From Nemertoderma westbladi (taxonomy: Eukaryota; Animalia; Xenacoelomorpha): 64,000 nt of DNA. The position numbers were made by a program, and so were the translations under genes. The stretch covers positions 2,449-66,448 of the forward strand of contig JAUCBJ010007659.1 of assembly GCA_032718475.1 (NCBI GenBank), in the 5' to 3' direction. Numbering within the stretch: the stretch's first letter is position 1; the number at the start of each line of letters is the position of its first letter. Positions 695 to 36,640 of the stretch are shown here, piece by piece. The notes beneath the pieces are model-generated. The model ran no database searches. It saw nothing but the letters and a program-made list of their open reading frames with translations, and had not been told where the DNA came from.

Positions 695-2036
695 TGGAGT
701 GTTTTACTGTGGAAGATCACCCATGATGGTGAACAGGCATTCCTTTAGGAAACAGTGGAAGGGGTGTACTGTGGAGGATCACCCATGGTGGTGAACAGGC
801 ATTCAATTAGGAAACAGAGTGGAAGGGTTTACTGTGGAAGATCACCCATGATGGTGAACAGGCATTCCGTTAGGAAACAGAGTGGAAGGGGTTTACTGTG
901 GAAGATCACCCATGGTGGTGAACAGGCATTCATTTAGGAAACAGAGTGGAAGGGTTTACTGTGGAAGATCATCCATGGTGGTGAACAGGCATTCATTTAG
1001 GAAACAGAGTGGAAGGGTTTACTGTGGAAGATCACCCATGGTGGTGAACAGGCATTCATTTAGGAAACAGAGTGGAAGGGTTTACTGTGGAAGATCACCC
1101 ATGATGGTGAACAGGCATTCCGTTAGGAAACAGAGTGGAAGGGTTTACTGTGGAAGATCACCCATGATGGTGAACAGGCATTCCGTTAGGAAACAGAGTG
1201 GAAGGGGTTTACTGTGGAAGATCACCCATGGTGGGGAACAGGCATTCATTTAGGAAACAGAGTGGAAGGGTTTACTGTGGAAGATCACCAATAATGGTGG
1301 TGAACAGGCATTCTTTTAGGAAACAGAGTGGAAGGATTTACTGTGGAAGATCAACCATGTTGGTGAACAGGCATTTATTTGGGAAACAGAGTGGAAGGGT
1401 TTACTGTGGAAGATCACTCATGGGGGGTGAACAGGTATTCCTTTAGGAAACAGAGTGGAAGGGTTTACTGTGGAAGATCATCCATGGTGGTGAACAGGAA
1501 TTCCTTTAGGAAACAGAGTGGAAGGGTTTACTGTGGAAGATCACCCATGGTGGTGAACAGGCATTCATTTAGGAAACAGAGTGGAAGGGTTTACTGTGGA
1601 AGATCCTCCATGGTGGTGGACAGACATTCCTTTAGAAACATAGAGGAAGGGTTTACTGTGGAAAATCACCCATGGTGGTGAACAGGAATTCCTTTAGGAA
1701 ACAGAGTGGAAGGGTTTACTGTGGAAGATCACCCATGATGGTGAACAGGCATTCCGTTAGGAAACAGAGTGGAAGGGTTTACTGTGGAAGATCACCCATG
1801 ATGGTGAACAGGCATTCCGTTAGGAAACAGAGTGGAAGGGGTTTACTGTGGAAGATCACCCATGGTGGTGAACAGGCATTCATTTAGGAAACAGAGTGGA
1901 AGGGTTTACTGTGGAAGATCACCAATAATGGTGGTGAACAGGCATTATTTTAGGAAACAGAGTGGAAGGATTTACTGTGGAAGATCAACCATGCTGGTGA
2001 ACAGGCATTTATTTGGGAAACAGAGTGGAAGGGTTT
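695..2036. repeat. 63-bp tandem minisatellite, left part (interrupted by the LTR element)
   Basis: Unit GAAACAGAGTGGAAGGGTTTACTGTGGAAGATCACCCATGGTGGTGAACAGGCATTCCTTTAG repeated about 21 times, with a ~634-bp higher-order duplication. Confidence 0.97.
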
Positions 2037-2087
2037 TGTTACGGTATATGGCGCTGTATCCACATTATTAGCCATTATGCAGTATAA

Positions 2088-2176
2088 TATATTAGTCCGT
2101 TATACTGTACGCAATATTAGTCCGTTATACTGTACGCAATATTAGTCCGTTATACTGTACGCAATATTAGTCCGTT
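2088..2176. repeat. 25-bp tandem repeat in LTR U3 (about 3.5 copies; also at 19080-19168)
   Basis: ATTAGTCCGTTATACTGTACGCAAT at 2091, 2116 and 2141, partial at 2166. Confidence 0.9.
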
Positions 2177-2545
2177 GTGCAGCATAATATTTTAGATAAG
2201 GCATAATAGCGCAGTGATATTTAGATAGGGAAATCGAAACGCCCATATATTTTGAATCCATCCATTTTGTATAGTATGTAGCCCTACCTACGTAATTTTG
2301 TAATAGGATATAGGTAGATAGTTCCAGGGTAGCAAGTTTAGTCGGACCCTGGATTTTGTGCTTGCTGTTATTAGCTTTGATAGGGCTAGATATAGGGACG
2401 CTGTCCTGGCCATTCAGCAGCCAGGGACATGATCCATTACCATATATGGTAATAATTTGAGGTTTGGGGAGCAATAGGGCTACAATCCGGCCTCCTTATT
2501 GGACTAACTGCTTCCAGGTTGGTCTAATGCTAGCGCGGACTGGAG

Positions 2546-2606
2546 AGCCAATAGGAGAGCGATTGAGTCACCCTATTGCATCACCCCATTCGGATCACCT
2601 ATAAAT
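2546..2606 (+). promoter_or_regulatory. Putative LTR promoter (CCAAT and TATA boxes)
   Basis: AGCCAATAG at ~2546-2554 and TATAAA at 2600-2605; AATAAA motifs further into the LTR at 3469, 3590 and 3646. Confidence 0.5.
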
Positions 2607-4288
2607 TGGCGGTTTGCCGGTAGAGCTGCACACCCTTACAACCAACCTTAACCTCAGTACCAATCTCAATCCTCTGTAGGTGTACAGTTAGAAGTATAAT
2701 TTTGCGTATTTCTGCAATTTGCTAAATTTTGATTAATTTCTTGAGATGATTTGCTAGTGCTATTATTCTCGATTGCGTTTCTCAATTAATCCTATCGATT
2801 ACTGCTAATTACAATCGGAACTATGATTTCTACCCCTTTTGTTAATGGTTCTATGTGATTCCTTTCTACGCAATAATCCTAAGGGATTTCTGAGACTGTC
2901 AGAATTTGTGATTTTGCATGCGCCGCTACGGTAGCTATTCAATTAAATGAAGGGCTAAGGTGCCAGTAGGCGGTGGGCGCATCGGGGGGTTGGGCGACTA
3001 AGGGAGAGCGGAGGATTCAAAGGCGGGCAACGCTGGCGGGGGTCAACGTTGTGGTAGGGCAGTTTGGACTGTGAGTTGGAGACCGCTCGCCGGTACAGTA
3101 ATTAGGGGGCTGATGATCCAAGGTTTTGTCTCTATTTAGTATTAGGGGGGCAGGAATTGGGTTAGTTAGGAAGCCTAGATGTACCCGGGAGGGGCCTGCA
3201 TACCTCACAGTAAGTAAGTAAGTGGGTAAGTACGTAAGTAAGTTGCGAATTATATAATTGCAGATTGTATAATTGCAAATCGTGCTATTTGTGATCTGTG
3301 ATTGCTGACGCTGATTGGTGTGTTACTGAAGTGTGCCTATGATTACGAATGCTTAGGTAGGCGCCCCTTTTCTTTGATTGATTTCTATTTCTTAGTTACT
3401 ACAAATAATTACTGATTAGGTCAAAGTAATACGGCAATTTAGGCTATTACTAGCGAAACCTGTTGTGTAATAAATTAGAATTACGCATTCTGGAACTCTT
3501 AGTAATTAGTGCGCTGTTACATATTTGTGACTGTAATTGATTAGTAAAATTAAGAATTAGTACGCAGCATAGCGGAGAGTAGCTAAGGTAATAAATTAGA
3601 GTACCGTAAACTATTCACGCTAGGCGGTTATTTGCATTAGCGGGCAATAAACTAGATCGCAATAGTCAGTACGCAAGACACTAGTGAATTGCTGGCCTAA
3701 AGCCAGCTGCAGGCAAGTTTAGACCCGGAGTGGTATCACCCACGAAAGACATTGTACTGTACCAATTTTGATTATTTTAAATATTCTCGCATTCACACAT
3801 TCCGTTAGGGAACGCCCAGTATTCGCGGTTAGAAAAGACGTAAGCATTAGTGTACTTCAATAAGTGGTAAAATTAGGCGTAAGAATACTCTGAGTGCAAA
3901 GCCCCTCGCACTCGTCTTAAGTAAGCTTAGGGAGCCGACTCGGGTTTATTGTTTTGGTTATTCCCGTGTGGCTCATAGATTCGAACAGTTAGCTCTCTAT
4001 CGAGTGATCGGTAGAGAAAGGAACAAGCGATTTTGCAGGAGTTGTGTAAAATTAGTAAAATATATTAGCGGACGGCAGATTAGCGCCATCCAACGGTAAG
4101 TAGCGGTTTTGTATTTAGCAGCCTTTACAATTTAGTAATGGCACGCTCCTGATCCCCTTTACTTAACAGTAGAGCAGTCTTTGTGTCTTATTGGTTAGGC
4201 GAGAGCTCATTAGGTTGGCAGAGAGGTATACGGGTATTTGTCTGTTCAACAGTTCTGCTGTTAGTATAGGTGTCGCGGTTGTTTATCA

Positions 4289-4300
4289 GTGAGGTATGCA
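4289..4300 (+). promoter_or_regulatory. Non-canonical primer-binding site, complementary to LTR 3197-3208
   Basis: GTGAGGTATGCA directly follows the LTR end with no TGG; its reverse complement TGCATACCTCAC lies at 3197-3208 and 20189-20200. Confidence 0.65.
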
Positions 4301-5575: not shown

Positions 5576-8500
5576 ATGAGTGTCTCAGACAAAGAAGCAC
5601 TAGAGGACAGCTATGAGACGGCGGCTGGACCGCCGACTGACGATAGCGTAAATATTACTGTTGACGACAATGCCGACTATGACGACGCAGCGAGCGACGC
5701 TGACGTAAGTGAACAGGAGGACGAGACAGTGACTAGTGAGGAAGAACAACAACCTCAAGTAATAGTATTAGGATCCCCTACCGCTACTGTAGGGAAGGAT
5801 TGTACAGCAACCCAACCAGAGGTGAGTGATAGGGAGGGTAGTGTAGCAGAAGCGAGAGCCCGGAGCCCGGTTTCCAGACCTGTGGGTATGGTAAGTGCCG
5901 TGGTCCCGACGGCTGTAAGGAGTACCCGTAGTTCCCGAAATAATCCTTCAAGTCCACCGAGTGTGAGTCAGGTAAGCGAGAGAGAACTAGACATCGCGAT
6001 AAAGAAGAAACTTCGCGCGCATGCCGGACATATAACTCGGACGGCGGACAAGGTAAGGAAGATGTTAGCTGACTCAGCGAACATCGGGAGGGTAGAGTTA
6101 GTAGAGATTAGAAGAGGATATAACTCAGCGTTATTCAAGCAGACGGAGGAGCTTGCAGTCCTAGCGAAGAAGGCAGTAGAGTCTCAGTCGAGCGACGTGG
6201 CGACGAGGATTTACGACAGGGTTTTAGCAGCCTTGTTGGAGCACCACGAGTTATCGGAGCGATTCCGACGAGGTAGGACGGAGAACTGGCTGCTATGGGC
6301 ATCACAAGCGCAGGCGACTCAAGTGAGTGACGCAGCGTTGAGAGACTTAGTGGAGCGAGAAGAGATCCAAGACAAAGAAGAGCGCCGTTATCAGAGGGAA
6401 GTTACTAGCTGGCTGATGCAGAATGGAGTGGTGGTACCGGGTCAGGTGCTACCGACGACGGAGAACATTCAACAGAGGACGTTAACTCCACCCGACGATG
6501 CATCCAGAGACAGCGGCGATTCCCAGGTTAGTCACGCGCGAGGTAAGGTTATATGTGCTAGATCCCTTGTTTCGCACAACTCGGCGGAGGAGAGAAGACG
6601 CCGACTGGACGAACAACAGGCGGAAGTTTTGCGTGCATCGGAAGCACGGAAGGAAGCCGAGCGGGAACGGGAGCGCACACGTAAGTTGGACGCGGAATTG
6701 CGAGAGTTGGAAGAGATAAGTAAGCGCGAGCGAGCGGAACGCGAGCAAAGGGAACGCGAACTCCAAGCCGAGCGCGTGCGCGAGGAACTCGAACGCGAAC
6801 AGAGAGAACGCGAACTCCAACTTGAATGCGAACGGGAAGCGAAGAAATGCGAACTCCAACTCGAACGCGAACAGGAAGCGAAGAAACGCGAACTCCAAGC
6901 CGAACGCGAACGCAAGAAACTCGATCGTGAACAGAAGGAGCGCAAGCTTCAACTCGAACGCGGACGCAAGGAACGCGAACTCGAGATCGAAAAAAGAAGA
7001 CGCGCATTGTATGAAGAAAAGGAGCGTGTGGAAGAAGAGAGCGCAGCGAGACGAGCGAGGGAAGAAGAAGAACGTAAACTGGCGCAGTTGGAAAGTGCGA
7101 GATTAAGTTTAGAGAGCGAAGAACGGACTAGGAAGGCGAACGAAATCGCCGAGAAGGGGATGCGAATGATCGAAGAATGTGGGGCGAGTATAGGGACAGA
7201 GTTGCGAGAACTGTTCGCACTGCAGAAGGCCGAACAGGAAGCGAGAACTCCGACTATACGCGAGTCGACAACAACCAGAATTCCTATACCCGGTCCAGCT
7301 ATTACGAGTACACGGATCGCTAAACCGTTCTCTACATATCGCACGCCAGTTGGTATTAGTGCTTCACCCATCGCCCAGGATCCACGTCATCGGAACACCG
7401 CTCCTAAACTCGATCGTGAACAGAAGGAGCGCGAGCTTCAACTCGAACGCGCACCACTATACACCGCACCACTATACACCGAACGAGAGAACGAAGAATT
7501 TAGAGGAGAAATTCCAACGGGACGAGTATTGGGCGAACCGAACCCGCGGGTTTGGAATACGCGGACGGAGCGCCAACCCAGTTCGACGGAGAACTTCCGG
7601 GTTAAACCGGAAGAGGGATCATATGAGAGACATCGGATTACTCAGATAGAGCCGACTATACAACAGAACCCTAGCCAGGAATTTATTACGAGGGATGAGT
7701 TAAGTGCTAGTTTAGCGCAAGCTATATCGCCACACATCCAACCTATAACGGACATGCTTAGCAACCTACGGTTAAAGGAAGCAGCCCAGGTAAGAAGTAA
7801 TTCAAATCCTAGCAGGCCTGAGTCAGATAAAGTCCAGCCTAGTCAACGAGTACGCATATCGGAGGAGACTATACCACGTAGACCTCAGGTAAGGACGCCT
7901 GTCCCGAATATTCATAATCCCAATTTCGAAAACTCAGCCGAGAAATTTATTGAGGAAGCTTGGGTCAGGGCCTCGGCACGCAAACCATTGCGAGCACTAA
8001 GGACTGACACCGAGTCAAGCGATGAAGAGGAAGACATGAGACGTCAGAAGTCCCGAAACTATAAGGAAAGAAGGACGGACGCGGAGCAGGTAAGTTTGAA
8101 CCACCGGGAAAGGAACAGACTTAACAACCCTGCGGAACTAAACCATTTGTTAACCCGGAACAACGCAACCCTTAGGGACATAGGTAAGTTTGCTGCTAGG
8201 CAAGGACTGCCGACGCAACAACCCCAGAAGTTTATGGGCAACCATAAACACTGGAGGACCTTCAAAACCTATGTCGACGAGCAGCTAACCAACAGCACCT
8301 TTACTCCCAACGAGAAGTTCAACTATTTGCTTCAGATGCTCCATCGAGAACCTAGAGCCATTGCTGATAACTTCGTCGGCAACGAAAGAGCATTCGAGTT
8401 AGCGATGAAGACGCTTAGCAACATCTACGGGAATAAAACGAAGATGGCGCAGTCGATAGTAGAAGACTTGGGTAAGGGCGGAAGGATTACAACTCCGTTA

Positions 8501-11500
8501 GAGCTGTTGAACTTAGCGAACGCTATTTCGAACGCATTGGACATCTTGAGGACGGTGAATCTACCTCATCATGGTGATCACGCCGAAGTTTTAAAGAGTG
8601 TAATAAGACGTTTAAACATGCGTTATCGACAGAAATGGCGCAAATTAGAGAATAAGTTGGAGGGTCAAGGTAAAGTATTGACACTTCAACACATTCATGA
8701 CATGATAGCCACAGACGCAGTAGCAGAGATGAAATCAAACTTCTCAGAAGAGAATATGAGAGAGTCTAAACCTGTTACCGGTAAGTCTATGGTAAGTTTT
8801 GACGATGACAGGACCACTGTGACATTTAACTCAGTAGACAGATATAATTCGAATACCCCAGCCTTTAGATCAGACTCGCGAGTATGGTCAGGTGAGCGGT
8901 TAGATAGACCTAGGTTAAAGCAACAGGAGTTGCCGGATGGATTTGTAGGTTGCCAATACTGTTTACTAAAGGAGGTAAGATCTGATGACCATAAGTTAGA
9001 TAGTTGCAGACGGTTCAAAGAATTAAATTCGGAACAGAGAAGAGTTCAAGTGCGGACGTTGGACACCTGTTGGGCATGTCTTGCGCCAGGCCATGTACGG
9101 CGGCAGTGCCCGAACAGCAAGGACGGATGCATGGAATGCGGCAGACTACATCACAAGTTGCTACATGCGGATTTCCATACCCCAACGGACCGTTACTTAC
9201 AGCGAAATCCTCAAAGGAAGGGGAGCAAAGAACCCATATCGATAAGGAGGAATACGTATACCGGCATTCAGGACGATGGTTACCAACCAGGTTCGTCGGA
9301 CGAGGATGGCGAGTCGAGCGCGAGAGAAGTGACCTGCCAAGGTTTCACTGCGGATAGTTTATCGACCAGCGCGCGGACGTATTTATCATCGGCCACGTCG
9401 GAAATATTTAGCGTGATTCCGGTGAAACTCACTGGCGATAAGGGATCGAAGCGAATATATGTGATGTTGGACACTGCGTCCACATTATCTTATATCGACG
9501 AGGAAGTGGCGAGAGCTGTTTCTAGCTTCCAGGACGCCGAGGAGATCCAAATAGAGTTGAAGTCTATGCATGGGGTAGGAGACCTCAAGGGACACAGAAT
9601 TTCGGTAGAACGAGACTCCCTACTTCCGAGAGACCAACATACTCGACAAGAACGAAAAGCTTTGCCATTGGACGGATTTAAGTGTCTAGCTATGAAGGGA
9701 TTCGGCAGGCAGTTAGGTAAGGTGCCACCGATGAGTCCCATAGCACAGGAGTATTTTGACAAGCTCAGGATACCCAGACACCAGGTAGGTTATAGGAATG
9801 TTTCTATGTTGATTGGTGCAGAACAGCTGATCGCACACCAGATATGGGAAACGAGACCAGCTGAGCCGCATGTCAATGGACCACATGCCCATAGGACCAT
9901 ACTAGGTTGGTATACACGAGTACCCATGTCTTATGAGTTTACAGGTGGCGACAAGCCGATGGACAGATACGACGAATTACAGCCTATAACTCAACCACCG
10001 TTAGTAAAACCACCAGACATAGACGAGTTTAGGAGAACCTGTATTGACCACTATAGTGACTTTAGCGAGTCAGACGAGGAGTTGATTCCCGATAATGTTA
10101 GGTTGTCGGAACCACTTCATAACGACCGGACAGATAGTGAACCCGAGGACTACTGTCATCAGACCCGTGGGTCTGGTTCAGCGGCCCACGCTACCTATTT
10201 GACTAACGTTTCGACTTATACAGACATAGTGGAGGGTCAAGTGGCTAAATATCGAGACCTAGACATTTTCCAATACAGTGAGGAGGAATTACAGAAGGAA
10301 TTGATACGCCAGGACCTCGAGACAGGAGCCAGAACCGTCGAATGGCTGGATAGGGACGCAATGGAACCCGGTGGATATGACCTAGCCATGTCCACTGACG
10401 AGAAACGGTCGCTGGAGATGATGGAAGATACCATACGTCTGCTACCGACAGGACATTTTGAAGTTGGAATGTTGTGGCGTCGACAACCACCTAAGTTGGA
10501 GAACAACTACAACTTAGCCTTGAAAAGATTAAACGGAGTAAGGGCTCGGTTGTTGAATAATCCGGACATTAGGGAGAAGTATTGCGCCCAGATCAACAAC
10601 TATTTTGCCAAGGGATTTGCTGGGAAGGTAGAGGACCCTGACTTAGTGACAGACCAGACTTATTACCTTCCACACCACTATGTGACTCACCCTGACAAGC
10701 CAGACAAAGTCCGAGTAGTCAACGACTGCGCAGCAGTCTATAGAGGTATGTCCCTGAATTCAGAGTTGATGGATGGTCCCAACCTGAACAACTATTTGAT
10801 TGGAATATTGTTGCGTTTTAGACAGCAGCGATTCGCATTTACTTGTGACATCGAGGCGATGTTCCACCAGGTAAGAGCCTGTAAGGCAGACCATGATAGC
10901 CTTCGCTTTCTCTGGTATGAGAATGAAGACTTATCCGGCCCAGTGGTTACATACCAGATGTACGTTAGGATATTTGGCGCCCGCGATAGTCCAAATGGCA
11001 CGCTGTTTGTTCTAAAGAAAACGGCAACAGCCCAGATTGGTAAGTACCCAGTAGAGGTTATCGAGTCCATCTTGAGAAACTTCTACATGGACGACGGATT
11101 GGTGTCCAAGGACACGGCGGAACAAGCCATAGAAGGGGCTCACGGCCTGCAAGAGTGCTTGGCTACAGGGGGTTTTCCTCTGACCAAGTTCACTACAAAC
11201 TCGGAGGCCCTATTAGAGTCGTTCCCAGTGAAAGATCGCGGGAGCGGAGACATAGAATTGGGGGTAGAACCAATCCCCATGGCGCGAGTACTGGGACTCG
11301 CTTGGAACCCGAACTCAGACAAGTTCCAGGTAAGAGTTAGATTTGAGCCCAGTAGCCCAGACAAAGTTTTGACAAAGAGGATTTGCTTATCGACATTAAG
11401 TAGACTATTTGACCCGATGAACTTTATCAGTCCGGTTATATTACAGGCACGAGCGTGCATGAGGAAAATTTGGTTGTCCGACATAGAGTGGGACGAACCA

Positions 11501-12418
11501 ATATCTCCTATACATGCAAAGCAGTGGAGGGAGTGGGAAGCCGAGTTACATCTATTGAAAAACATAGATGTACCCCGTTCCTACTTTCCGAATCAGCTGG
11601 TATTTCCAGCTGATCTCGAACTCCACCTATTTAGTGACGCAAGTGACACCGGCTTTGGTATGGTAGCCTACCTTCGCCGAGAGGTAAGTCAGGACAAATT
11701 TGAGACGGCCTTTGTGACTTCTAGATCAAAGACAATGCCAGTCAAATACATGACTGTCCCTCGTGCAGAGTTACAGGCGGCTGTAGTTTCAGTCGAGGTA
11801 AGTAAGCAAATAACTGAGGAGTTAGACACGACATTGACCTTATTCTATTGGACGGACGCATCCTTGGTGTTAGTATACATTGCGGCCGACAATATTGCAC
11901 TAAAGACATTTGTGGCCAACAGACGCGCTCAGATCGTTGATTTTTCGACGAAGGAACAATGGAGACATTGTCCGGGAGTGTTAAACCCGGCCAACATAAC
12001 TTCGAGAGGTGCAATGCCGGCGGAATTCTGTCAGGAAGAGTCGCAGGAGTTTTGGTTGCATGGACCTGATTTTCTAACGAGGACACAGGAACATTGGCCA
12101 GAGCGACTAAAGATTGTGACCAATCCGATGCCTGAAGATGCAGAAGTCAAAGTGGAGAAAGTCTCTAAGTCAAAGTCTAAAGCCAAACTTAAGTCATTGG
12201 AGCGGCCTGAAGAGTCATTGGAGCGGCCTGAAGAGTCATTGGAGCGGCCCGGAGACCTGTCAGACCAACAGACTTACGTGACTACTAGGTCCGGAAGGGT
12301 AAGTTATGATGTAAAACCACCCTTACAGACTAAACCGGAGTCACAATTGGTAAGTGACGGACAGAAAATGACTGACACAATGGATCCTTTGGTTTCCAAA
12401 CCTGCGGGTTTGGATTAG
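5576..12418 (+). CDS. Bel/Pao Gag-Pol polyprotein (Gag, aspartic protease, RT, RNase H)
   Basis: 2280-aa ORF: coiled-coil N-terminus, Gag knuckles CWACLAPGHVRRQC and CMECGRLHHKLLH, protease LDTAS, RT YYLPHH/KVRVVNDC/DIEAMFHQ/YMDD, RNase H FSDAS/ELQAA/WTDAS. Confidence 0.93.
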   Translation: MSVSDKEALEDSYETAAGPPTDDSVNITVDDNADYDDAASDADVSEQEDETVTSEEEQQPQVIVLGSPTATVGKDCTATQPEVSDREGSVAEARARSPVSRPVGMVSAVVPTAVRSTRSSRNNPSSPPSVSQVSERELDIAIKKKLRAHAGHITRTADKVRKMLADSANIGRVELVEIRRGYNSALFKQTEELAVLAKKAVESQSSDVATRIYDRVLAALLEHHELSERFRRGRTENWLLWASQAQATQVSDAALRDLVEREEIQDKEERRYQREVTSWLMQNGVVVPGQVLPTTENIQQRTLTPPDDASRDSGDSQVSHARGKVICARSLVSHNSAEERRRRLDEQQAEVLRASEARKEAERERERTRKLDAELRELEEISKRERAEREQRERELQAERVREELEREQRERELQLECEREAKKCELQLEREQEAKKRELQAERERKKLDREQKERKLQLERGRKERELEIEKRRRALYEEKERVEEESAARRAREEEERKLAQLESARLSLESEERTRKANEIAEKGMRMIEECGASIGTELRELFALQKAEQEARTPTIRESTTTRIPIPGPAITSTRIAKPFSTYRTPVGISASPIAQDPRHRNTAPKLDREQKERELQLERAPLYTAPLYTERENEEFRGEIPTGRVLGEPNPRVWNTRTERQPSSTENFRVKPEEGSYERHRITQIEPTIQQNPSQEFITRDELSASLAQAISPHIQPITDMLSNLRLKEAAQVRSNSNPSRPESDKVQPSQRVRISEETIPRRPQVRTPVPNIHNPNFENSAEKFIEEAWVRASARKPLRALRTDTESSDEEEDMRRQKSRNYKERRTDAEQVSLNHRERNRLNNPAELNHLLTRNNATLRDIGKFAARQGLPTQQPQKFMGNHKHWRTFKTYVDEQLTNSTFTPNEKFNYLLQMLHREPRAIADNFVGNERAFELAMKTLSNIYGNKTKMAQSIVEDLGKGGRITTPLELLNLANAISNALDILRTVNLPHHGDHAEVLKSVIRRLNMRYRQKWRKLENKLEGQGKVLTLQHIHDMIATDAVAEMKSNFSEENMRESKPVTGKSMVSFDDDRTTVTFNSVDRYNSNTPAFRSDSRVWSGERLDRPRLKQQELPDGFVGCQYCLLKEVRSDDHKLDSCRRFKELNSEQRRVQVRTLDTCWACLAPGHVRRQCPNSKDGCMECGRLHHKLLHADFHTPTDRYLQRNPQRKGSKEPISIRRNTYTGIQDDGYQPGSSDEDGESSAREVTCQGFTADSLSTSARTYLSSATSEIFSVIPVKLTGDKGSKRIYVMLDTASTLSYIDEEVARAVSSFQDAEEIQIELKSMHGVGDLKGHRISVERDSLLPRDQHTRQERKALPLDGFKCLAMKGFGRQLGKVPPMSPIAQEYFDKLRIPRHQVGYRNVSMLIGAEQLIAHQIWETRPAEPHVNGPHAHRTILGWYTRVPMSYEFTGGDKPMDRYDELQPITQPPLVKPPDIDEFRRTCIDHYSDFSESDEELIPDNVRLSEPLHNDRTDSEPEDYCHQTRGSGSAAHATYLTNVSTYTDIVEGQVAKYRDLDIFQYSEEELQKELIRQDLETGARTVEWLDRDAMEPGGYDLAMSTDEKRSLEMMEDTIRLLPTGHFEVGMLWRRQPPKLENNYNLALKRLNGVRARLLNNPDIREKYCAQINNYFAKGFAGKVEDPDLVTDQTYYLPHHYVTHPDKPDKVRVVNDCAAVYRGMSLNSELMDGPNLNNYLIGILLRFRQQRFAFTCDIEAMFHQVRACKADHDSLRFLWYENEDLSGPVVTYQMYVRIFGARDSPNGTLFVLKKTATAQIGKYPVEVIESILRNFYMDDGLVSKDTAEQAIEGAHGLQECLATGGFPLTKFTTNSEALLESFPVKDRGSGDIELGVEPIPMARVLGLAWNPNSDKFQVRVRFEPSSPDKVLTKRICLSTLSRLFDPMNFISPVILQARACMRKIWLSDIEWDEPISPIHAKQWREWEAELHLLKNIDVPRSYFPNQLVFPADLELHLFSDASDTGFGMVAYLRREVSQDKFETAFVTSRSKTMPVKYMTVPRAELQAAVVSVEVSKQITEELDTTLTLFYWTDASLVLVYIAADNIALKTFVANRRAQIVDFSTKEQWRHCPGVLNPANITSRGAMPAEFCQEESQEFWLHGPDFLTRTQEHWPERLKIVTNPMPEDAEVKVEKVSKSKSKAKLKSLERPEESLERPEESLERPGDLSDQQTYVTTRSGRVSYDVKPPLQTKPESQLVSDGQKMTDTMDPLVSKPAGLD

Positions 12419-14059
12419 AAACTTCCATTAATTAGCGGACAACCGTCGCTGGCATTAGAATCATGCAGTGTTTATGACAAATTACTAAATTCGTCTGCCT
12501 CTTGGCTGACAATTTGTAAAAGAACTGCGTGGTTAAACCGATACATTTCGTACCTTTGTTTAAAACATTCGGAACATTTAGGAGAACCATCGAGCGCTAA
12601 TAGTGAGCGAATTCAGAAATTGAAACAACCTCTGACAGAGGATGAGATTGATCAAGCGGAATTAAAGCATTTGAAGCATTATCAAATGTGTGCCTTCCCT
12701 AAAGAATTCCATCTATTATCAGCTCAACGACCAGTTCTCTATAAACCCCTTAGAAAATGGAGTCCATTAATCCATAAGGGTTTGATTTGTCATAGATCGA
12801 GAATCCAGACTGTCGACATAAACTCACAGTTTCGGTTCCCAGTGATAATCCCTAGTCACCCAATAGAATTGCAAAGAGCGATTCTATGGGATATACACAA
12901 GAGGTTGGATCACGCGGGAAAGTTACACTGTTTGTCGGCAGCGAGACAGCGATTCATTCTATTGCAGCCAAGCAGGGCAGTAGGCACTATGTACGACGCC
13001 TGTCTGGTTTGCAAGAGAGTGAACGCCAGAGTATTGGAACAGGAGATGGCTGAACTCCCGGAAGCGAGAGTGCAGGCATATGACCCACCCTTTACGAACA
13101 CAGGGGTGGACTGTTTTGGTCTGATTGAGGCAAAGAGTGGACGGCTGACCCACAAGCGATGGGGTCTGCTGCTGACATGTATGGCTAGTAGAGCCATACA
13201 TATCGAGCGTGTGGCAGACATGTCGACCAAATCTCTGCTCCTGGCCTTGAAGAGATTTATGGCCAGGAGAGGACTAGTATAGGCGTTCTATTCCGATAAG
13301 GGTACAAACTTTGTCGGAGGGAATAGCGAGTTGAACGCCGCTCATAAAGCGGCACAGAATAAGGAAATTTCTGCAGCACTTTTGCCGCAACGAGTAGAGT
13401 GGAGATTTAATACTCCAGAAAGTCCTTGGAGAGGAGGAAGTTGGGAGCGTTTAGTTCGCTCTGTAAAGCAGGCCATTGCCAAAACATTGCCTGTGAACAA
13501 ACAACTTACCGACGACGAACTGGTCACAGCTTTCATCGAAATCGAGCATACATTAAACTCGAGGCCGATAGCTATGTTGCCAGACGGTGTTGCATTAACG
13601 CCGAATCATTTGCTAATGCAGAGTCCAGCATTTCTTGTGCCGGCATCAGAACCCATTAGTGCCGACCTATATAGTCGTAAAAGCTGGAAGGTGACTCAAT
13701 TAGTGGCGTACACATTCTGGGAATATTGGCGGGAATACTATCTTCCCACCATATCTACCAGAACAAAGTGGTACAAAACGGTTCGGAGTCTCCAAAGGGG
13801 AGATTACGTATTGATAACCGAGCCGATTGTCAAGAGAAAGTATTGGGAGACTGGAGTGATCTTGCACACACACCCAGACGTGCAAAACATAGTGCGCACA
13901 GTCACTGTGAAAATTAGGTGCAAGTGTCCACACCCAAAAAAGTGTAAAACTAATGGTTTGCACACCTTGGACCGACCGGTCCAAGATATTGTGTTATTAG
14001 AGGAGACACGTATCGAGACGGGAGATTATAATTTGTCTCCTGCCTCAAAACAGAATTAG
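12419..14059 (+). pseudogene. Integrase portion of pol, same frame, cut off by in-frame TAG stops at 12416 and 13280
   Basis: Frame continues after the stop (SSASWLTICKRTAWLNRY); HHCC motif (HKRLDH...CLVC); DDE motifs GVDCFG, RRGLV*AFYSDKGTNF and GGSWERLVRS; LTPNHLL. Confidence 0.9.
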
Positions 14060-14749: not shown

Positions 14750-14768
14750 CTAACTGATTTACCCACAG
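14750..14768 (+). promoter_or_regulatory. Candidate branch point and splice acceptor for the extra-ORF mRNA
   Basis: CTAAC (14750-14754) then TGATTTACCCACAG, about 60 nt upstream of ATG 14828. Confidence 0.45.
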
Positions 14769-14827
14769 TGTAATTGGTTACGTAACGGCACTTATTGGGA
14801 TATATATATGTATATACGCGAGGCATA

Positions 14828-17800
14828 ATGGAGAAGGATATTAGAGCGCAACCGCGCAGAGGATTTACTGCCAGAGAGGAGGCGGAGCTACCATTCGCGC
14901 GACCAGGATGTAAAGACTCTAACGTTTACTACCATGGGCGGTCCGTGATGGAGCTAAACGGAAAATACAAACCGACTTACGATAAGGAATTACGGAGGGA
15001 AAGAATGAGAGCGTTGGGGGACTGGATGGAAGTTTTGCGGAGAGAGTATCGCACTCGGTATCCCTACGACTTCGCTTTGGACGTATGTGACATTAGTGCA
15101 GACCCGGATGAGGAGATCGCACGACTGTACCATATGAATATGTATTTACGACACGAAGAACCTCTACCTGCAGTCCGAGATCAGTTCGACGGAATGCATC
15201 TGTACCGGAGGACTCGAGGCGAGGATCAGGAGACGCCGAAAGTCTTCAGCGTGTACAAGCTGTTCTACAAGTGTGGTGAATGCATGAATAAGCAAGACGT
15301 GGCGATTCCCGACCGACTAGACGAGCAACATCCAGAACCGATATTAACGCGATGTCCAGCTCACCAGTTCCTTAGATACAACGAGGGAGGTTACCCGATG
15401 AGCAACCCGATGATCAGTATCGACTTCAGCGGAAAGCGACCTCCGAGACCCATTACGCCGACCGTTACGACATTAGATCCGTATACGGAGATTAAACCCT
15501 GTTCGACACCCAGTTTGATAGAGACGGCAGCGGCCATTTCGCTGTACCGAGCCTATAAGGATCTAGAGGCGCGGCGCGAAGCGGCACGGGACTCGGGTAC
15601 CAAACCCGCGGGTTTGGAGCTCTCGAGTCCCTGGACTGCGTTTACTTCACCTCACCGAGCGAGAAGCCTCACGCCTGAGCATCAGGACGACATAGACGCG
15701 TTGCGGCAGGAGGAGCGAGCGGCGAAGGCGAAAGAGTTATTTGAGAATAGGATAGCGGAGTATAATAAGGCCGCGGATAGACATCAAGAGGAGACGAGGA
15801 GAGTGACCGGATTTGTTCCACAGGTCGTATCTCAACCCCGACCGGTGTATTATTCCGACGGCACCGAACCTGCGATATTAGTAGATCATCCGGAGTCGCG
15901 AGAAGCGATACGATTCTTGCCGATGGTAAGAATGGCGGATCATTGGAACGTTGACTGTCTACGGGAAGTTTTATGCGCGAAGTTCTTGCGTGATGTCCCA
16001 ATGCAGATCACAGATTACGACACATTGGATAAGATTGGAGCTCCGGGGAAGGAGAGCAAATTATTTGGATGGTTGGATAAGTACATCAAGGTATGGGTCG
16101 CGGTGGCTACATTCCCAGACGACGAGGAGGTAGACCAGACGTGGCTGAGGAGGAAGGGTTCTTATACCCGATATGATGACCACAAGGCTATCGAGCGCAT
16201 GTGGACCCCATCAGACGAGATTCAGCGTCAGTGGAGGAAAACGGAGGAATCACTGCAGGATTGGAGGGTGATGTTCTACGACAATGAAGGAGGGTCCCAT
16301 CAGGAATGTTTGACCAGCAAGTGTATTCAAATTCGTGCAGCCGATGGTGTGACTCATGTGTTTATGCGTGTGAGGGCGGATCGAGAGAGACCGGAGCCCA
16401 TCATAACGACACAATATCGGAAAGGGAAGGATCCTAGGGAGCAGATTTTGGAGGTATGCAGGCGAGGAGGTATGCACGGAGCGGAGCGTATCGACGCCAG
16501 GATGCTACCCAAGAAAGTTAGAGAGGCTATTCTCAACCAAGATTACGTCAAGGTGGGATCGGGAGTCCAGAGCGATTTGGAGAGCGACTTCAACGCCATG
16601 ACTGATCTGGAAGATAGATTGCCGAGACCGTTTGTCGACACCAAGCTATTGTTGCTATGGGCACAGGATATTGGAATTTATAGGGAGTATCCCAACTCTG
16701 CCAAGACTGGTATGGGCTTTATAGCACACTTGTTGTATAATTGGGACTTTAAGTTAAAGACGCAGAAGAAGTACGAGGAGGCGTATGGCGAATACAACAC
16801 GCCACCGGGAGCGGAGTTCAAATCCCACTTCAAGCGGCAAGCGTTAGTGTATTGGAACATTTGCGCGCCACCCCGTGCGTCGCTACAATATTATTTGGTG
16901 CTTGAGTCGAACACGGTGACTTGTTTATTAGCGGATATCGTTGCGCGAGTTTTGAAGCGTCATCCATTGGTATTCGGAGGAGATCAATACGTTCGCTCGA
17001 AAGGGGGAATCCAATCCGACGTGATGAAGCGTTTCTTAACCCCGTTCTTCAACCAATCGTTAGAGAATACGTCGATGGTTAGGAGAGGATTAGCGATATT
17101 CCAAGGAGTATATCGACAGAACATCGGAGATTTGGGAGACCGACCGTCGATGGAGTATCCGACGCCAGAGGCTTTGGAGAAGTGGTTCGGGAATCAAACC
17201 CGCGGGTTTGGTACTCCCTTCCACTCGGAGGCTGATAGACCTGTTAAGGAGGGCTGGCCGGAGACGTTAGTAGAGGTGTTCGGAGTAGATCTTCCGGTGG
17301 AGAAGACATATCCGAAACGAACGCGGGAGGAAATATTGGAGATAGAGGACAAGGGCGAGGATGTTTACTTTGTTCCGGATCGACAACCGCTGACCGGAGA
17401 GGACGACATCGTATTAGACATTGGGAAAGAAGGAAGTGCGAAACCGATTGGAGACCTCATATACGAGAGGGCCTGGTTTCCACAAGCGCGTAGGTGCAAG
17501 TTGTGCGGCAGCACAAGGCACAATCTAAAGTCGTGCGACGCGGTAGTAGAGGCGGCGCATAAGGTCTGTCGTTGGTGTAATGAGACCGACCATTCGTTTC
17601 ACACGTGCACCGTCTTCATTTCTCAATGTGGATATTGTGGGGTAAAGGGACATCGTAGCGCGAGATGTCAGCTGCGAGATGATTCCTTCCAAAACCATAG
17701 CGCTAACCTACTTCGGGAGATGTTAGATAAGTGGGAGAGTGTGGCTGACTACCATATTCAAGCGCAGATGCGTTGGTTACCATTCAAGGCGGGGTATGGA

Positions 17801-18430
17801 TTTTGGGCGGTAGACCCATCACATGTTGCGTACGAGCCATATCTACAGTCGCTACCACAATATCAGGAACTCATCCTAACTGCTCAAGACCTTCCACAAA
17901 ACACTGGAGTTATCGTAGTCCGAGAATACTTCAGACAGTTGAATATGGATAATAAGTACACCTGGAACTTCGTTGCTATTTGCGATCGAATCACGAAGGG
18001 TGTATTTTCGGAGACTAGAAAAGTGGTACGCGCGCGAGGTGATTGGAGAATGGCGGCTATACAATACCGCAACGAATTCTTGTTGACTCATGTGCCAGTG
18101 GGTTCATTGACCGCTGAGAGGATACAGGAGCAGAGGATCGCAGCGACCACAGCGACGACCGCTGGAGCTCAAGGCTCGCGGAAAGAACCAGGAGGAGGGG
18201 TCCAAGACAAGCGTCAAGTCAAGGACGACCACTATCACTCTATTATAGAAGCACAGCGGTTGCAGCGCAAGGCGCAGGGAGCGTCAGAGAAGGCGCGTGT
18301 GCAACTGCATAAGGAAGAGTTGGCGGAAGCGACCACGGGAGCACGACAATTGGGACGAGGCCCGAGGGAGAAGCACGAGCCGGGAATCTGTCGGGGCTCA
18401 GGGAGCATCGTCTCCGGTTCCGGGGAGTGA
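14828..18430 (+). CDS. Extra retrotransposon ORF (~1200 aa) of unknown function with three CCHC zinc knuckles
   Basis: Uninterrupted ORF between pol and the 3' LTR, first ATG at 14828; CKLCGSTRHNLKSC, CRWCNETDHSFHTC and CGYCGVKGHRSARC; no obvious signal peptide or TM helix. Confidence 0.85.
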   Translation: MEKDIRAQPRRGFTAREEAELPFARPGCKDSNVYYHGRSVMELNGKYKPTYDKELRRERMRALGDWMEVLRREYRTRYPYDFALDVCDISADPDEEIARLYHMNMYLRHEEPLPAVRDQFDGMHLYRRTRGEDQETPKVFSVYKLFYKCGECMNKQDVAIPDRLDEQHPEPILTRCPAHQFLRYNEGGYPMSNPMISIDFSGKRPPRPITPTVTTLDPYTEIKPCSTPSLIETAAAISLYRAYKDLEARREAARDSGTKPAGLELSSPWTAFTSPHRARSLTPEHQDDIDALRQEERAAKAKELFENRIAEYNKAADRHQEETRRVTGFVPQVVSQPRPVYYSDGTEPAILVDHPESREAIRFLPMVRMADHWNVDCLREVLCAKFLRDVPMQITDYDTLDKIGAPGKESKLFGWLDKYIKVWVAVATFPDDEEVDQTWLRRKGSYTRYDDHKAIERMWTPSDEIQRQWRKTEESLQDWRVMFYDNEGGSHQECLTSKCIQIRAADGVTHVFMRVRADRERPEPIITTQYRKGKDPREQILEVCRRGGMHGAERIDARMLPKKVREAILNQDYVKVGSGVQSDLESDFNAMTDLEDRLPRPFVDTKLLLLWAQDIGIYREYPNSAKTGMGFIAHLLYNWDFKLKTQKKYEEAYGEYNTPPGAEFKSHFKRQALVYWNICAPPRASLQYYLVLESNTVTCLLADIVARVLKRHPLVFGGDQYVRSKGGIQSDVMKRFLTPFFNQSLENTSMVRRGLAIFQGVYRQNIGDLGDRPSMEYPTPEALEKWFGNQTRGFGTPFHSEADRPVKEGWPETLVEVFGVDLPVEKTYPKRTREEILEIEDKGEDVYFVPDRQPLTGEDDIVLDIGKEGSAKPIGDLIYERAWFPQARRCKLCGSTRHNLKSCDAVVEAAHKVCRWCNETDHSFHTCTVFISQCGYCGVKGHRSARCQLRDDSFQNHSANLLREMLDKWESVADYHIQAQMRWLPFKAGYGFWAVDPSHVAYEPYLQSLPQYQELILTAQDLPQNTGVIVVREYFRQLNMDNKYTWNFVAICDRITKGVFSETRKVVRARGDWRMAAIQYRNEFLLTHVPVGSLTAERIQEQRIAATTATTAGAQGSRKEPGGGVQDKRQVKDDHYHSIIEAQRLQRKAQGASEKARVQLHKEELAEATTGARQLGRGPREKHEPGICRGSGSIVSGSGE

Positions 18431-19028: not shown

Positions 19029-21280
19029 TGTTACGGTATATGGCGCTGTATCCACATTATTAGCCATTATGCAGTATAATATATTAGTCCGTTATACTGT
19101 ACGCAATATTAGTCCGTTATACTGTACGCAATATTAGTCCGTTATACTGTACGCAATATTAGTCCGTTGTGCAGCATAATATTTTAGATAAGGCATAATA
19201 GCGCAGTGATATTTAGATAGGGAAATCGAAACGCCCATATATTTTGAATCCATCCATTTTGTATAGTATGTAGCCCTACCTACGTAATTTTGTATTAGGA
19301 TATAGGTAGATAGTTCCAGGGTAGCAAGTTTAGTCGGACCCTGGATTTTGTGCTTGCTGTTATTAGCTTTGATAGGGCTAGATATAGGGACGCTGTCCTG
19401 GCCATTCAGCAGCCAGGGACATGATCCATTACCATATATGGTAATAATTTGAGGTTTGGGGAGCAATAGGGCTACAATCCGGCCTCCTTATTGGACTAAC
19501 TGCTTCCAGGTTGGTCTAATGCTAGCGCGGACTGGAGAGCCAATAGGAGAGCGATTGAGTCACCCTATTGCATCACCCCATTCGGATCACCTATAAATTG
19601 GCGGTTTGCCGGTAGAGCTGCACACCCTTACAACCAACCTTAACCTCAGTACCAATCTCAATCCTCTGTAGGTGTACAGTTAGAAGTATAATTTTGCGTA
19701 TTTCTGCAATTTACTAAATTTTGATTAATTTCTTGAGATGATTTGCTAGTGCTATTATTCTCGATTGTGTTTCTCAATTAATCCTATCGATTACTGCTAA
19801 TTACAATCGGAACTATGATTTCTACCCCTTTTGTTAATGGTTCTATGTGATTCCTTTCTACGCAATAATCCTAAGGGATTTCTGAGACTGTCAGACTTTG
19901 TGATTTTGCATGCGCCGCTACGGTAGCTATTCAATTAAATGAAGGGCTAAGGTGCCAGTAGGCGGTGGGCGCATCGGGGGGTTGGGCGACTAAGGGAGAG
20001 CGGAGGATTCAAAGGCGGGCAACGCTGGCGGGGGTCAACGTTGTGGTCGGGCAGTTTGGACTGTGAGTTGGAGACCGCTCGCCGGTACAGTAATTAGGGG
20101 GCTGATGATCCAAGGTTTTGTCTCTATTTAGTATTAGGGGGGCAGGAATTGGGTTAGTTAGGAAGCCTAGATGTACCCGGGAGGGGCCTGCATACCTCAC
20201 AGTAAGTAAGTAAGTGGGTAAGTACGTAAGTAAGTTGCGAATTATATAATTGCAGATTGTATAATTGCAAATCGTGCTATTTGTGATCTGTGATTGCTGA
20301 CGCTGATTGGTGTGTTACTGAAGTGTGCCTATGATTACGAATGCTTAGGTAGGCGCCCCTTTTCTTTGATTGATTTCTATTTCTTAGTTACTACAAATAA
20401 TTACTGATTAGGTCAAAGTAATACGGCAATTTAGGCTATTACTAGCGAAACCTGTTGTGTAATAAATTAGAATTACGCATTCTGGAACTCTTAGTAATTA
20501 GTGCGCTGTTACATATTTGTGACTGTAATTGATTAGTAAAATTAAGAATTAGTACGCAGCATAGCGGAGAGTAGCTAAGGTAATAAATTAGAGTACCGTA
20601 AACTATTCACGCTAGGCGGTTATTTGCATTAGCGGGCAATAAACTAGATCGCAATAGTCAGTACGCAAGACATTAGTGAATTGCTGGCCTAAAGCCAGCT
20701 GCAGGCAAGTTTAGACCCGGAGTGGTATCACCCACGAAAGACATTGTACTGTACCAATTTTGATTATTTTAAATATTCTCGCATTCACACATTCCGTTAG
20801 GGAACGCCCAGTATTCGCGGTTAGAAAAGACGTAAGCATTAGTGTACTTCAATAAGTGGTAAAATTAGGCGTAAGAATACTCTGAGTGCAAAGCCCCTCG
20901 CACTCGTCTTAAGTAAGCTTAGGGAGCCGACTCGGGTTTATTGTTTTGGTTATTCCCGCGTGGCTCATAGATTCGAACAGTTAGCTCTCTATCGAGCGAT
21001 CGGTAGAGAAAGGAACAAGCGATTTTGCAGGAGTTGTGTAAAATTAGTAAAATATATTAGCGGACGGCAGATTAGCGCCATCCAACGGTAAGTAGCGGTT
21101 TTGTATTTAGCAGCCTTTACAATTTAGTAATGGCACGCTCCTGATCCCCTTTACTTAACAGTAGAGCAGTCTTTGTGTCTTATTGGTTAGGCGAGAGCTC
21201 ATTAGGTTGGCAGAGAGGTATACGGGTATTTGTCTGTTCAACAGTTCTGCTGTTAGTATAGGTGTCGCGGTTGTTTATCA
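19029..21280 (+). repeat. 3' LTR (2252 bp)
   Basis: Direct repeat of 2037-4288; preceded only by a short purine-rich GGAGCGG (weak PPT). Confidence 0.97.
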
Positions 21281-36463: not shown

Positions 36464-36640
36464 GCGGGGTAGCCCAGTTGGTTGAGGGCCGGGCCTGCAA
36501 TCTATTGGTTGTAGGTTCGAGCCCCGCCAGGCTCCGCAGTCATCCTTTAATCTAATGGGGTCGACCCGCAGTCAGCCGGGTCGATCTAACGGGGTCGATA
36601 AAATGAAGACCAGTTGAATTACTCGGAGCAAAACTTGGTA
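36464..36640 (+). mobile_element. tRNA-derived SINE (Nin-domain-like) head and body
   Basis: A box TAGCCCAGTTGG (36470-36481), B box GGTTCGAGCC (36514-36523), core GGGGTCGATAAAATGAAGACCAG. Confidence 0.7.

Follow-up and report, generated by a model that had tools for sequence, protein, structure and literature searches.

A predicted DEDDy-type 3′-5′ exonuclease with three zinc knuckles in the extra open reading frame of a Bel/Pao element from Nemertoderma westbladi

The analyzed window, a stretch of 64,000 nucleotides from Nemertoderma westbladi (contig JAUCBJ010007659.1), contains a young, recently inserted Bel/Pao element of 19.2 kb with an extra ORF downstream of pol (Table 1). The element was inserted within a 63-bp satellite array and is bounded by a 5-bp target-site duplication. 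Its LTRs are direct repeats with TG...CA ends, and 8 differences in about 2,250 nt were found between them. The assignment to Bel/Pao is based on these termini and on the gag-pol frame, in which Pao-specific domains were identified by Pfam (Peptidase_A17, E 3e-39; DUF1759; Integrase_H2C2; DUF5641). A triple Cys-His box and the motifs LDTAS, YMDD and DAS were read from the frame, and the order PR-RT-RH-IN corresponds to the features described for Bel/Pao gag-pol (PMC554778). Compared to the published pattern, the spacer of the first Cys-His box is longer. The element also exceeds, with 19 kb, the upper bound of 15 kb that was applied to full-length Bel/Pao elements (PMC3118150). Rfam and tRNA scans resulted in no matches.

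Table 1. Features of the Bel/Pao element and its extra ORF (positions of the window).
Feature	Position	Strand	Remarks
Target-site duplication GGTTT	left 2032..2036, right 21281-21285	.	5 bp
5′ LTR	2037..4288	+	2252 bp, TG...CA
Candidate self-primer, LTR segment	3197..3208	+	exact 12-nt complement of the primer-binding position
Four GTAAGT splice-donor-like motifs	3210..3239	+	begin one base past the candidate self-primer; putative donors
Primer-binding position	4289..4300	+	directly 3′ of the LTR; no TGG start
gag-pol, Bel/Pao, single frame	5576..14059	+	interrupted by TAG at 12416 and 13280
Branch-point-like CTAAC and CAG acceptor-like site	14750..14768	+	60 nt upstream of the ATG of the extra ORF; putative splice site
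Extra ORF, 1200 aa	14828..18430	+	N-terminal part without assignment, DEDDy-type exonuclease (predicted), acidic linker, three CCHC knuckles with helical extension, low-complexity tail
N-terminal CxxC...CxxH cluster	15272..15364	+	aa 149-179; possible zinc site
16-nt hairpin CARACC-YGYG-GGTYTG, in ORF	15601..15616	+
DEDDy-type 3′-5′ exonuclease domain (predicted)	16205..16975	+	aa ~460-716; ~40-aa insertion at aa ~516-555
Second in-ORF hairpin copy	17195..17210	+	reading phase differs from the first
Three CX2CX4HX4C zinc knuckles	17495..17668	+	aa 890-903, 914-927, 934-947
Helical extension past the knuckles	17669..17887	+	aa 948-1020; conserved, common to all 8 homologues
Last ~22 codons of the extra ORF	18361..18430	+	probably off-frame in this copy
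3′ LTR	19029..21280	+

The extra ORF occupies the env position; it follows the pol stop (14057) and precedes the 3′ LTR. An earlier note on this sequence had described it as uninterrupted over 3.6 kb and gag-pol as carrying two stops, and both descriptions were confirmed; the chance of an open frame of this length is about 1e-27. The contrast drawn there between an intact ORF and a broken gag-pol is uninformative, since at the given LTR divergence the probability that an ORF of this kind stays free of nonsense changes by chance alone is 0.76. The term intact applies to the lack of internal stops but not to the 3′ end, as the last ~22 codons of this copy are probably off-frame. None of the 6 variants listed from 18361 to the stop is synonymous in the frame of this copy, whereas 5 of 6 are synonymous in a shifted frame, and a frameshifting length difference near 18361 was found in contigs of 3 out of 4 runs. 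The shifted frame remains open up to 18536. In the runs X1 and X3 the summed contig depth of the ORF was about half of that of pol; this depth is no measure of copy number and therefore does not indicate copies without the ORF.

For the analysis of selection, variants were taken from the contigs of 4 runs, which contain family copies of the element; one of the runs, X4, may be of RNA. The ORF is not restricted to the copy in the window but was found across the element family. Between aa 1 and 1150, the variants of the family copies comprised 28 synonymous and 2 non-synonymous changes, so purifying selection acts on the extra ORF among element copies. For the whole ORF, 29 of 38 variants were synonymous compared to a neutral expectation of 31% (P 8e-9), which is not near-neutral. 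The family is of high diversity, and selection on the accessory gene is measurable in it. An in-frame deletion of 327 nt (aa 49-158), present in 3 of the 4 runs, takes out the CxxC half of the N-terminal cluster.

No Pfam family was detected in the ORF, whether searched as a whole or as three parts. The AlphaFold model of the single sequence (pLDDT 34.5; aa 1-300 without a usable model) was not used for fold searches, which were carried out with a model based on 9 sequences with a mean pLDDT of 50. All 50 matches listed by the Z-score search were 3′-5′ exonuclease domains or proteins bearing one, and the best among them was the EXO domain of Nibbler (Z 11.1, rmsd 3.6, 185 aligned residues). 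The top rows of Foldseek were nearly all DEDD exonucleases, with no match reaching E 0.001. In addition, alignment profiles matched EXD2 (6k17, E 0.003 and 0.002) and, through the knuckles, trypanosome RNase D (7c45, E 1e-4). In the fold searches, aa 301-1045 were taken up by exonuclease and knuckle matches, and no fusogen was among the matches listed. With Z scores of up to 11.1 to DnaQ/RNase H-like folds (model mean pLDDT 50), the central domain, which was absent from the first reading of the ORF, very probably has a DnaQ/RNase D fold. The Z scores of Nibbler, RICE, diDNase, NrnC, Pol I, WRN and RNase D differ by about 2 units at most, so the substrate is not named by the fold.

The candidate catalytic set comprises D485, E487, D583, Y689 and E693. 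In alignment A4, the first position is a D in all 7 homologues with a residue there and the second an E in 6 of 7; D583 is conserved in 7 of 8 and Y689 in 6 of 7, and the position of E693 is acidic in all 7 (D or E). D485 and E487 of the candidate ExoI motif are located on the predicted strand 481-487, in a register given by 3 of 6 alignments. The two-block profile for ExoI reached a top score of 15.0 versus 3.4, which is modest support as shuffled sequences did as well in 6 of 300 and in 3 of 500 cases, and the block HMM did not find this register. The ExoII motif is represented by an Asp after a VG motif (KVGSGVQSD583). In the candidate ExoIII motif (Y689-x3-E693) a Glu replaces the Asp, as in 2 of the 7 homologues bearing the motif. 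The domain is likely to be an active two-metal nuclease with E693 substituting for the last Asp.

The three knuckles reported in the earlier note are strict motifs, and the N-terminal Cys/His cluster was also recovered (C149-x2-C152...C176-x2-H179). For this cluster (aa 149-179) no homologue was found, and about 450 N-terminal residues are not explained by any match; a long helix is predicted within them (aa 283-334). Using Kyte-Doolittle hydropathy, by which the lack of a visible signal peptide or transmembrane segment was confirmed, the best 19-residue mean was 1.34 and the mean of the hydrophilic first 30 residues −1.19. If the ORF is read on in the shifted frame, its probable longer tail is hydrophilic, too. 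The proposed non-env accessory protein with RNA-binding knuckles is in agreement with the lack of membrane segments, the exonuclease fold, the family-wide occurrence and the purifying selection. In contrast, a second nucleocapsid or chaperone, also suggested there, does not fit to the predicted DEDDy-type fold and to the comparison of the ORF with Gag of the same element, in which no similarity was found (best BLAST E 1.4). Duplication of the Gag Cys-His region was rejected on this value and on the differing motif spacing. An origin of the ORF from a nested DNA transposon was rejected as well, since no terminal inverted repeats flank it.

Among 1.84 billion proteins, 8 remote homologues were identified (E 4e-11 to 6e-4; the nearest with 25-32% identity), of which 7 align with the ORF in two stretches. 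The two blocks in common are the exonuclease (aa ~460-716) and the knuckles with the helical extension (aa 884-1020). A profile built from the homologues alone matched the ORF at aa 559-718 (63.6 bits) and aa 884-1018 (67.0 bits). Genomic context was looked up for 2 of the 8 homologues. The gene of homologue P0006, located on a 2.5-kb contig, is interrupted by an intron of the spliceosomal type, and that contig is free of retroelement genes, so the exonuclease-knuckle family is also present outside LTR elements. Homologue P0007 was not found in metagenome contigs, nor the ORF core in viral contigs. On the 8 homologues Pfam gave only sub-threshold matches, and a word-indexed protein search covering near or shorter lengths, performed also with alignment A2, returned nothing. 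A rotavirus-type VP4 stretch from the single-sequence search of the PDB (best E 0.06) was rejected as chance. These results point to an unannotated eukaryotic family of exonuclease plus triple knuckle that is undetected by Pfam. Among the matches listed, none was to a known env/fusogen or to a recently captured host gene.

The earlier note took the protein for a type that it did not recognize, which is not supported: the core is a predicted DEDDy-type exonuclease fold, and exonuclease third ORFs were described for the bdelloid rotifer LTR elements Juno and Vesta and for Athena/Terminon (Rodriguez, Kenefick and Arkhipova, 2017; PMC5408684). As in the element described here, the bdelloid ORF3 is a non-env ORF after pol with an RNase D-like DEDDy domain and without transmembrane segments. 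It keeps the catalytic residues, with a function that is undemonstrated (PMC5408684); the candidate residues likewise appear to be kept in the ORF analyzed here. The bdelloid hosts are the LTR lineages of Juno and Vesta and Penelope-like elements, whereas the host is a Bel/Pao element in this study. The bdelloid motif is DEED (PMC5408684), which differs from D485, E487, D583 and E693. The consulted sections of that report describe no triple CCHC block, compared to three knuckles in 1200 aa here. According to the same sections, resequenced env and GDSL ORF3s showed no departure from neutrality (PMC5408684), in contrast to the strong purifying selection on the extra ORF. The question of what DEDDy ORFs do in retroelements dates back to 2017 (PMC5408684). 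DEDDy third ORFs are known from bdelloid gypsy-like and Penelope-like elements, while our searches of the literature found no precedent in Bel/Pao. Giant gypsy elements named 'Daidara' reportedly carry DEDDy accessory genes.

The arrangement of an exonuclease domain followed by tandem CCHC fingers is shared with the RNase D of Trypanosoma brucei (TbRND; PDB 7C42/7C45), whose fingers bind single-stranded RNA and raise the trimming activity (PMC7797062). The ORF matched it both in the profile search, through the knuckles (E 1e-4), and in the structural comparison (Z 8.0). TbRND is a cellular mitochondrial enzyme with four fingers near the nuclease domain and a preference for uridine, whereas the knuckles of the ORF number three and lie ~170 aa past this domain; the ORF also has a conserved helical extension and an N-terminus of 450 aa without assignment. 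The best structural neighbors, the exonuclease domains of Nibbler/Mut-7, EXD2, WRN, Exd1 and Egalitarian (Z 8.9-11.1), are 7-17% identical, and the domain arrangement of the ORF is present in none of them. As the structural matches are tied, no subfamily could be assigned. The position between pol and the 3′ LTR is that of the env-like ORFs of Bel/Pao (roo F-like, Tas, Cer7, mosquito chuvirus-like glycoproteins; PMC13524379, PMC554778), from which the ORF differs by the lack of a signal or transmembrane segment and by a predicted nuclease fold in place of a fusogen. Extra ORFs of Bel/Pao are described as captured envelope genes; the prediction indicates that accessory genes of an enzyme type may occur in Bel/Pao as well.

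Two further elements of the sequence are candidate substrates. The position following the LTR end lacks the TGG of a tRNA-complementary site, and its complement lies within the LTR itself, as described for Tf1/Tj1 (PMC4600332). The complementarity covers 12 of 12 nt; none of 2000 LTR shuffles and 2 of 14700 internal positions reached this length. Tf1/Tj1 belong to Ty3/gypsy, whereas in this Bel/Pao element the complementary segment is located ~1.1 kb upstream of the primer site. To our knowledge, Tf1/Tj1 elements do not carry such an extra ORF. A second copy, 15 nt with the LTR end, was found at 4384-4398. The pairing probability was at least 0.84 for folds starting at 3150 or 3198 and ending at 4330; the pairing was lost with a start at 2630 and shifted to the second copy (~4389-4400) when this was included. 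The other candidate is a hairpin present in 8 copies in the internal region only (5875, 7539, 10160, 12397, 14485, 15601, 17195, 18693), with a spacing of 1.1-2.6 kb and compensatory or wobble changes on the + strand.

Our preferred reading, which we hold tentatively and somewhat below an even chance, is that the ORF, a predicted DEDDy-type 3′-5′ exonuclease with three zinc knuckles under purifying selection, shortens host small RNAs from their 3′ ends and weakens silencing. The protein would be translated from a spliced subgenomic mRNA with the acceptor at 14768. In the manner of trypanosome RNase D, the knuckles would hold single-stranded RNA so that its 3′ end reaches the active site, and the silencing of the element would be weakened by trimming. 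The least secure part is the target, which may be host silencing RNA or a host-added RNA tail and not the element's own replication intermediates, with a similarly tentative standing. A general function fits, since domains of this type are present in several retroelements that are not related to each other (PMC5408684). In trypanosomes an exonuclease with knuckles trims small RNAs (PMC7797062), and the arenavirus ExoN reportedly serves immune suppression. In bdelloids, all types of ORF are covered by small RNAs, and the DEDDy ORFs, whose activity is undemonstrated, are without a clear link to copy number (PMC5408684); this coverage and the lacking link count against counter-silencing. If silencing RNAs are trimmed, the ORF would be a retrotransposon-encoded counter-defense nuclease. 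The silencing suppressor and the primer-processing factor considered in the earlier note both become more concrete given the predicted nuclease domain.

The nuclease could alternatively mature the element's own primer, which we consider unlikely. If an RNA end were made just past 3208, through cleavage or through the action of the spliceosome on the donor at 3210, it would be paired with the primer site except for 1-2 unpaired 3′ bases. Removal of these bases by the exonuclease would allow the reverse transcriptase to extend. The perfect complement (3197-3208 / 4289-4300), its pairing probability and the donor-like motif starting one base after the paired segment are consistent with this, as is the trimming of short 3′ overhangs of structured RNA by RNase D-type enzymes (PMC5408684). 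However, the pairing depends on the fold window, Penelope-like elements carry exonuclease ORFs as well (PMC5408684), and the Tf1 primer is made by the RNase H of the reverse transcriptase according to the title of Levin (1996). Primer trimming by the nuclease would be a new priming route. Its extension to a three-part system that replaces tRNA priming, with a donor-cut LTR self-primer, an exonuclease trimming the unpaired 3′ base(s) and eight hairpins recruiting the protein to the genomic RNA, is rather improbable. The hairpins are also central to a doubtful explanation in which the exonuclease fold mainly binds RNA, like Egalitarian or Exd1, and the protein recognizes the hairpins and thereby guides the genomic RNA of 17 kb into export, transport or packaging. 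Egalitarian-RNA complexes were first in Foldseek (9rvy, E 0.006), Exd1 reached Z 9.6, and the restriction of the eight hairpins to the internal region with compensatory or wobble changes, the long helix at aa 283-334 and the E in place of the last catalytic D would fit to an adaptor. On the other hand, all five catalytic positions stay acidic or Tyr, also in most homologues at ~20% identity, Egalitarian (Z 8.9) ranks below several active nucleases, and the hairpins could equally be bound by the Cys-His boxes of Gag.

A role of the nuclease in reverse transcription, in which it would proofread the DNA or trim cDNA ends and help to maintain the unusually long 19-kb element in analogy to the nidovirus ExoN, is very unlikely. 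The exonuclease domains of Klenow, apPol and WRN match at Z 9.7-10.2 and the element is longer than the 15-kb bound (PMC3118150), but single-stranded RNA is suggested as the ligand by CCHC knuckles like those of Lin28/RNase D, and the family is variant-rich in the contigs, although fidelity is not measured by such richness. The post-pol position, the three knuckles and the intron-bearing homologue outside an evident retroelement could also indicate an env-like protein, a second nucleocapsid or a recently captured host passenger gene. This is most improbable in view of the lack of a hydrophobic segment and of Gag similarity, the exonuclease fold, the strong synonymous excess and nearest homologues of only 25-32% identity. 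The role of a retroelement DEDDy ORF is directly testable in this case, as a soluble domain pair, named candidate catalytic residues and candidate substrates (self-primer, hairpins) are present in one element.

The extra ORF between pol and the 3′ LTR of the Bel/Pao element (14828–18430, 1200 aa) is real, selected and very probably not env, and profile and structure comparisons predict a DEDDy-type exonuclease with triple knuckles. Its translation is free of stops, and the three strict CX2CX4HX4C knuckles (nt 17495–17668) and the N-terminal CxxC...CxxH cluster (aa 149–179) were found as described in the earlier note. The highest 19-residue hydropathy was 1.34, consistent with the lack of a visible membrane segment and, together with the exonuclease matches, with a non-env nature. 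The element is flanked by a GGTTT target-site duplication and was inserted within a 63-bp satellite.

Features of the window and of one homologue locus (L001)
Feature	Position	Strand	Remarks
Bel/Pao element	2037–21280	+	2252-bp LTRs, 8 differences between LTRs, TG...CA ends
gag-pol	5576–14059	+	Pao-specific Pfam domains; TAG stops at 12416 and 13280
GTAAGT splice-donor-like motifs (four)	3210–3239		begin one base past paired segment 3197–3208
CTAAC...CAG acceptor-like site	14750–14768		upstream of extra ORF
16-nt hairpin CARACC-YGYG-GGTYTG (8 copies)	5875–18708		every 1.1–2.6 kb, internal region only, coding and non-coding
Satellite arrays	703–2036, 21281–23289, 31223–34677; 24276–25765; 25994–26675; 36640–39456; 49500–59400		periods 63, 31, 18, 36, 24 bp
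Decayed non-LTR retroelement fragments	45387–48159 and 60822–61274		RVT_1 E 1e-9 and 3e-11
Predicted intron-bearing eukaryotic gene, exonuclease-plus-triple-knuckle protein	L001 257–2405		91-nt GT-AG segment

The ORF had been described as intact while gag-pol carries stops. The open frame and the gag-pol stops were both found, but the intactness probably does not hold for the 3′ end, and the contrast is weak, as the ORF would escape nonsense changes at the observed LTR divergence with P = 0.76. All six listed variants from 18361 to the stop are non-synonymous in the frame of this copy, whereas five of the six count as synonymous once the frame is shifted, and that shifted frame runs on without a stop as far as 18536. 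Since contigs of the sequencing runs X1, X3 and X6 also differ in length near 18361 in a way that changes the frame, the tail is probably off-frame in this copy and the family protein somewhat longer. The stop at 13280 is peculiar to this copy, since all compared contigs (4 of 4 runs) read otherwise; the one at 12416 was absent among the 40 variant rows listed of about 1,300. This first TAG (region 12397–12418) is located between RNase H and integrase, just past one 16-nt hairpin; it may be private to this copy or may be common to the family and serve programmed read-through. The N-terminal part of Gag (5576–8200) comprises about 880 aa ahead of the DUF1759 match, is acidic and coiled-coil-like and contains 39-bp and 15-bp tandem units.

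The stretch was present in 6 of 7 listed runs from 4 studies. The ORF is not confined to this copy, as contigs of X1 and X3 covered 30 of 30 bins of its region, including contig pieces with up to ~20% differing letters. Of the 40 best-supported variant rows out of 302, 38 are located inside the ORF, and 29 of these are synonymous, whereas the spectrum of changes observed would predict 31% (P = 8e-9). The corresponding pN/pS of 0.14 is not near 1; it derives from non-independent variants chosen by support and is not a dN/dS estimate. For aa 1–1150, 28 synonymous versus 2 non-synonymous variants were counted in the same subset. These values are evidence of purifying selection, and the ORF is a selected part of the family. 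Some of its N-terminal residues, the CxxC pair among them, may not be required, since an in-frame 327-nt deletion (aa 49–158) was found in 3 of 4 runs.

Pfam, PDB and word-indexed protein searches with the ORF gave no match. An exhaustive HMMER search yielded eight proteins of 514–727 aa with 25–32% identity, seven without a name and one named 'hypothetical'; for residues 1–450, no homologue was found in the protein searches. Two blocks are shared (aa ~480–720 and 884–1020), the first with putative DEDDy motifs (a hydrophobic strand ending in D-x-E, followed by VGS-x4-D, DT and Y-x3-D/E). The alignment profiles matched EXD2 (E 0.002–0.003). The AlphaFold2 model (aa 301–1045, 9 sequences, mean pLDDT 50) contains a three-strand meander from aa 481 onward, and Foldseek matched it almost exclusively to DEDD exonucleases, none at E 0.001 or better. 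In a wide structural search, 50 of the 50 chains among the matches listed bear an exonuclease, with Nibbler EXO at the top (Z 11.1, rmsd 3.6, 185 aligned), besides RICE-type, diDNase, Pol I, WRN, Exd1, RNase D and Rrp6. The protein type, which had not been recognized from the sequence, is thus predicted by profiles, model and fold searches. Candidate catalytic residues are D485, E487, D583, Y689 and E693. The ExoI register was recovered in 3 of 6 alignments, one of which underlies the model; the block HMM missed the motif, and an ungapped two-block profile placed this register first (15.0 vs 3.4; score reached by 6/300 and 3/500 shuffles). The earlier proposal of a second nucleocapsid was not borne out, as the knuckles do not resemble those of the element's own Gag and are similar to Lin28 and trypanosome RNase D.

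Genomic context was analyzed for one of the eight homologues (L001, 2486 bp). There, an upstream frame carries the ExoI motif, which the 91-nt segment, with its ends in phase, separates from the rest. Judged from the sequence, L001 is a eukaryotic gene with an intron, and with no retroelement gene in view within these 2486 bp, the exonuclease-plus-knuckle family appears not to be limited to LTR elements. In homologue P0002 the knuckle block is duplicated and catalytic residues are lost.

The best-supported prediction for the product is a knuckle-tethered 3′-5′ exoribonuclease. In Trypanosoma brucei RNase D, CCHC fingers provide RNA binding and increase trimming activity (PMC7797062). The predicted enzyme would trim small RNAs or host-added tails and thereby counteract silencing, a tentative proposal in which the substrate step is conjectural. 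This general role is favored over other readings because the domain type recurs in unrelated retroelements: DEDDy ORF3s with a DEED motif, activity not demonstrated, were described in the bdelloid Juno, Vesta and Athena elements (PMC5408684; restated in PMC6431247 and PMC5718144). Proofreading of DNA by the nuclease is very unlikely by comparison.

Trimming of the element's own primer is a rather unlikely alternative. The primer-binding position directly after the 5′ LTR (4289–4300) has no TGG of the kind that marks tRNA primer sites and instead complements LTR 3197–3208 perfectly over 12 nt (reached by 0 of 2,000 shuffles); self-priming has been described (PMC4600332). The pairing was predicted for an RNA start near 3150–3198, was lost with a start at 2630 and moved to a second primer-site copy near 4389 once that copy was in the fold. 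Similarly doubtful is a non-catalytic, Egalitarian-like adaptor for the 16-nt hairpins, which might themselves act as a signal for packaging, dimerisation or transport. The window scan gave 16 strand matches at 9 places, 8 of them inside the element (1.4 matches expected); two copies lie inside the extra ORF in different phases, and the core stem contains a single compensatory change and a single wobble change. If wobble pairs are counted, the YGYG loop is complementary to itself. A UGCG loop is the target of the Rous sarcoma virus nucleocapsid. The counter-silencing exoribonuclease is preferred to both alternatives.

In the available text of the sources, the Bel/Pao extras mentioned are env-like only (PMC13524379, PMC554778, PMC11599104), and that of PMC3118150 gives 15 kb as upper bound for full-length elements and contains the word 'exonuclease' 0 times. 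No Bel/Pao element with an exonuclease ORF was found in the literature searched; an earlier annotation is conceivable, since that literature was thin in subscription journals and Repbase reports.

The GTAAGT motifs and the acceptor-like site suggest that the ORF may be expressed from a spliced, subgenomic mRNA. An acceptor-like pyrimidine tract inside the LTR ends near 3395. A second copy of the LTR end and primer site (4372–4398), 100 nt downstream, overlaps a 7-bp hairpin and, in one fold, is paired in preference to the first copy. About 110 nt upstream of the ORF, a long G run (14704–14722) could be a purine tract internal to the element or a repeat prone to assembly error. A six-codon upstream frame (14808–14830) overlaps the ORF start with its stop (TAATG); it may not be conserved, because the AT repeat there differs in length among contigs. 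Ahead of the 3′ LTR (19005–19028), no clear purine tract was found; a GGGAAA...TTTCCC inverted pair is present.

In the remaining window, several long ORFs were rejected as artefacts of satellite arrays. One decayed non-LTR fragment contains a perfect 350-bp triplication (47112–48147), and large inverted repeats are located at 60275–61998.
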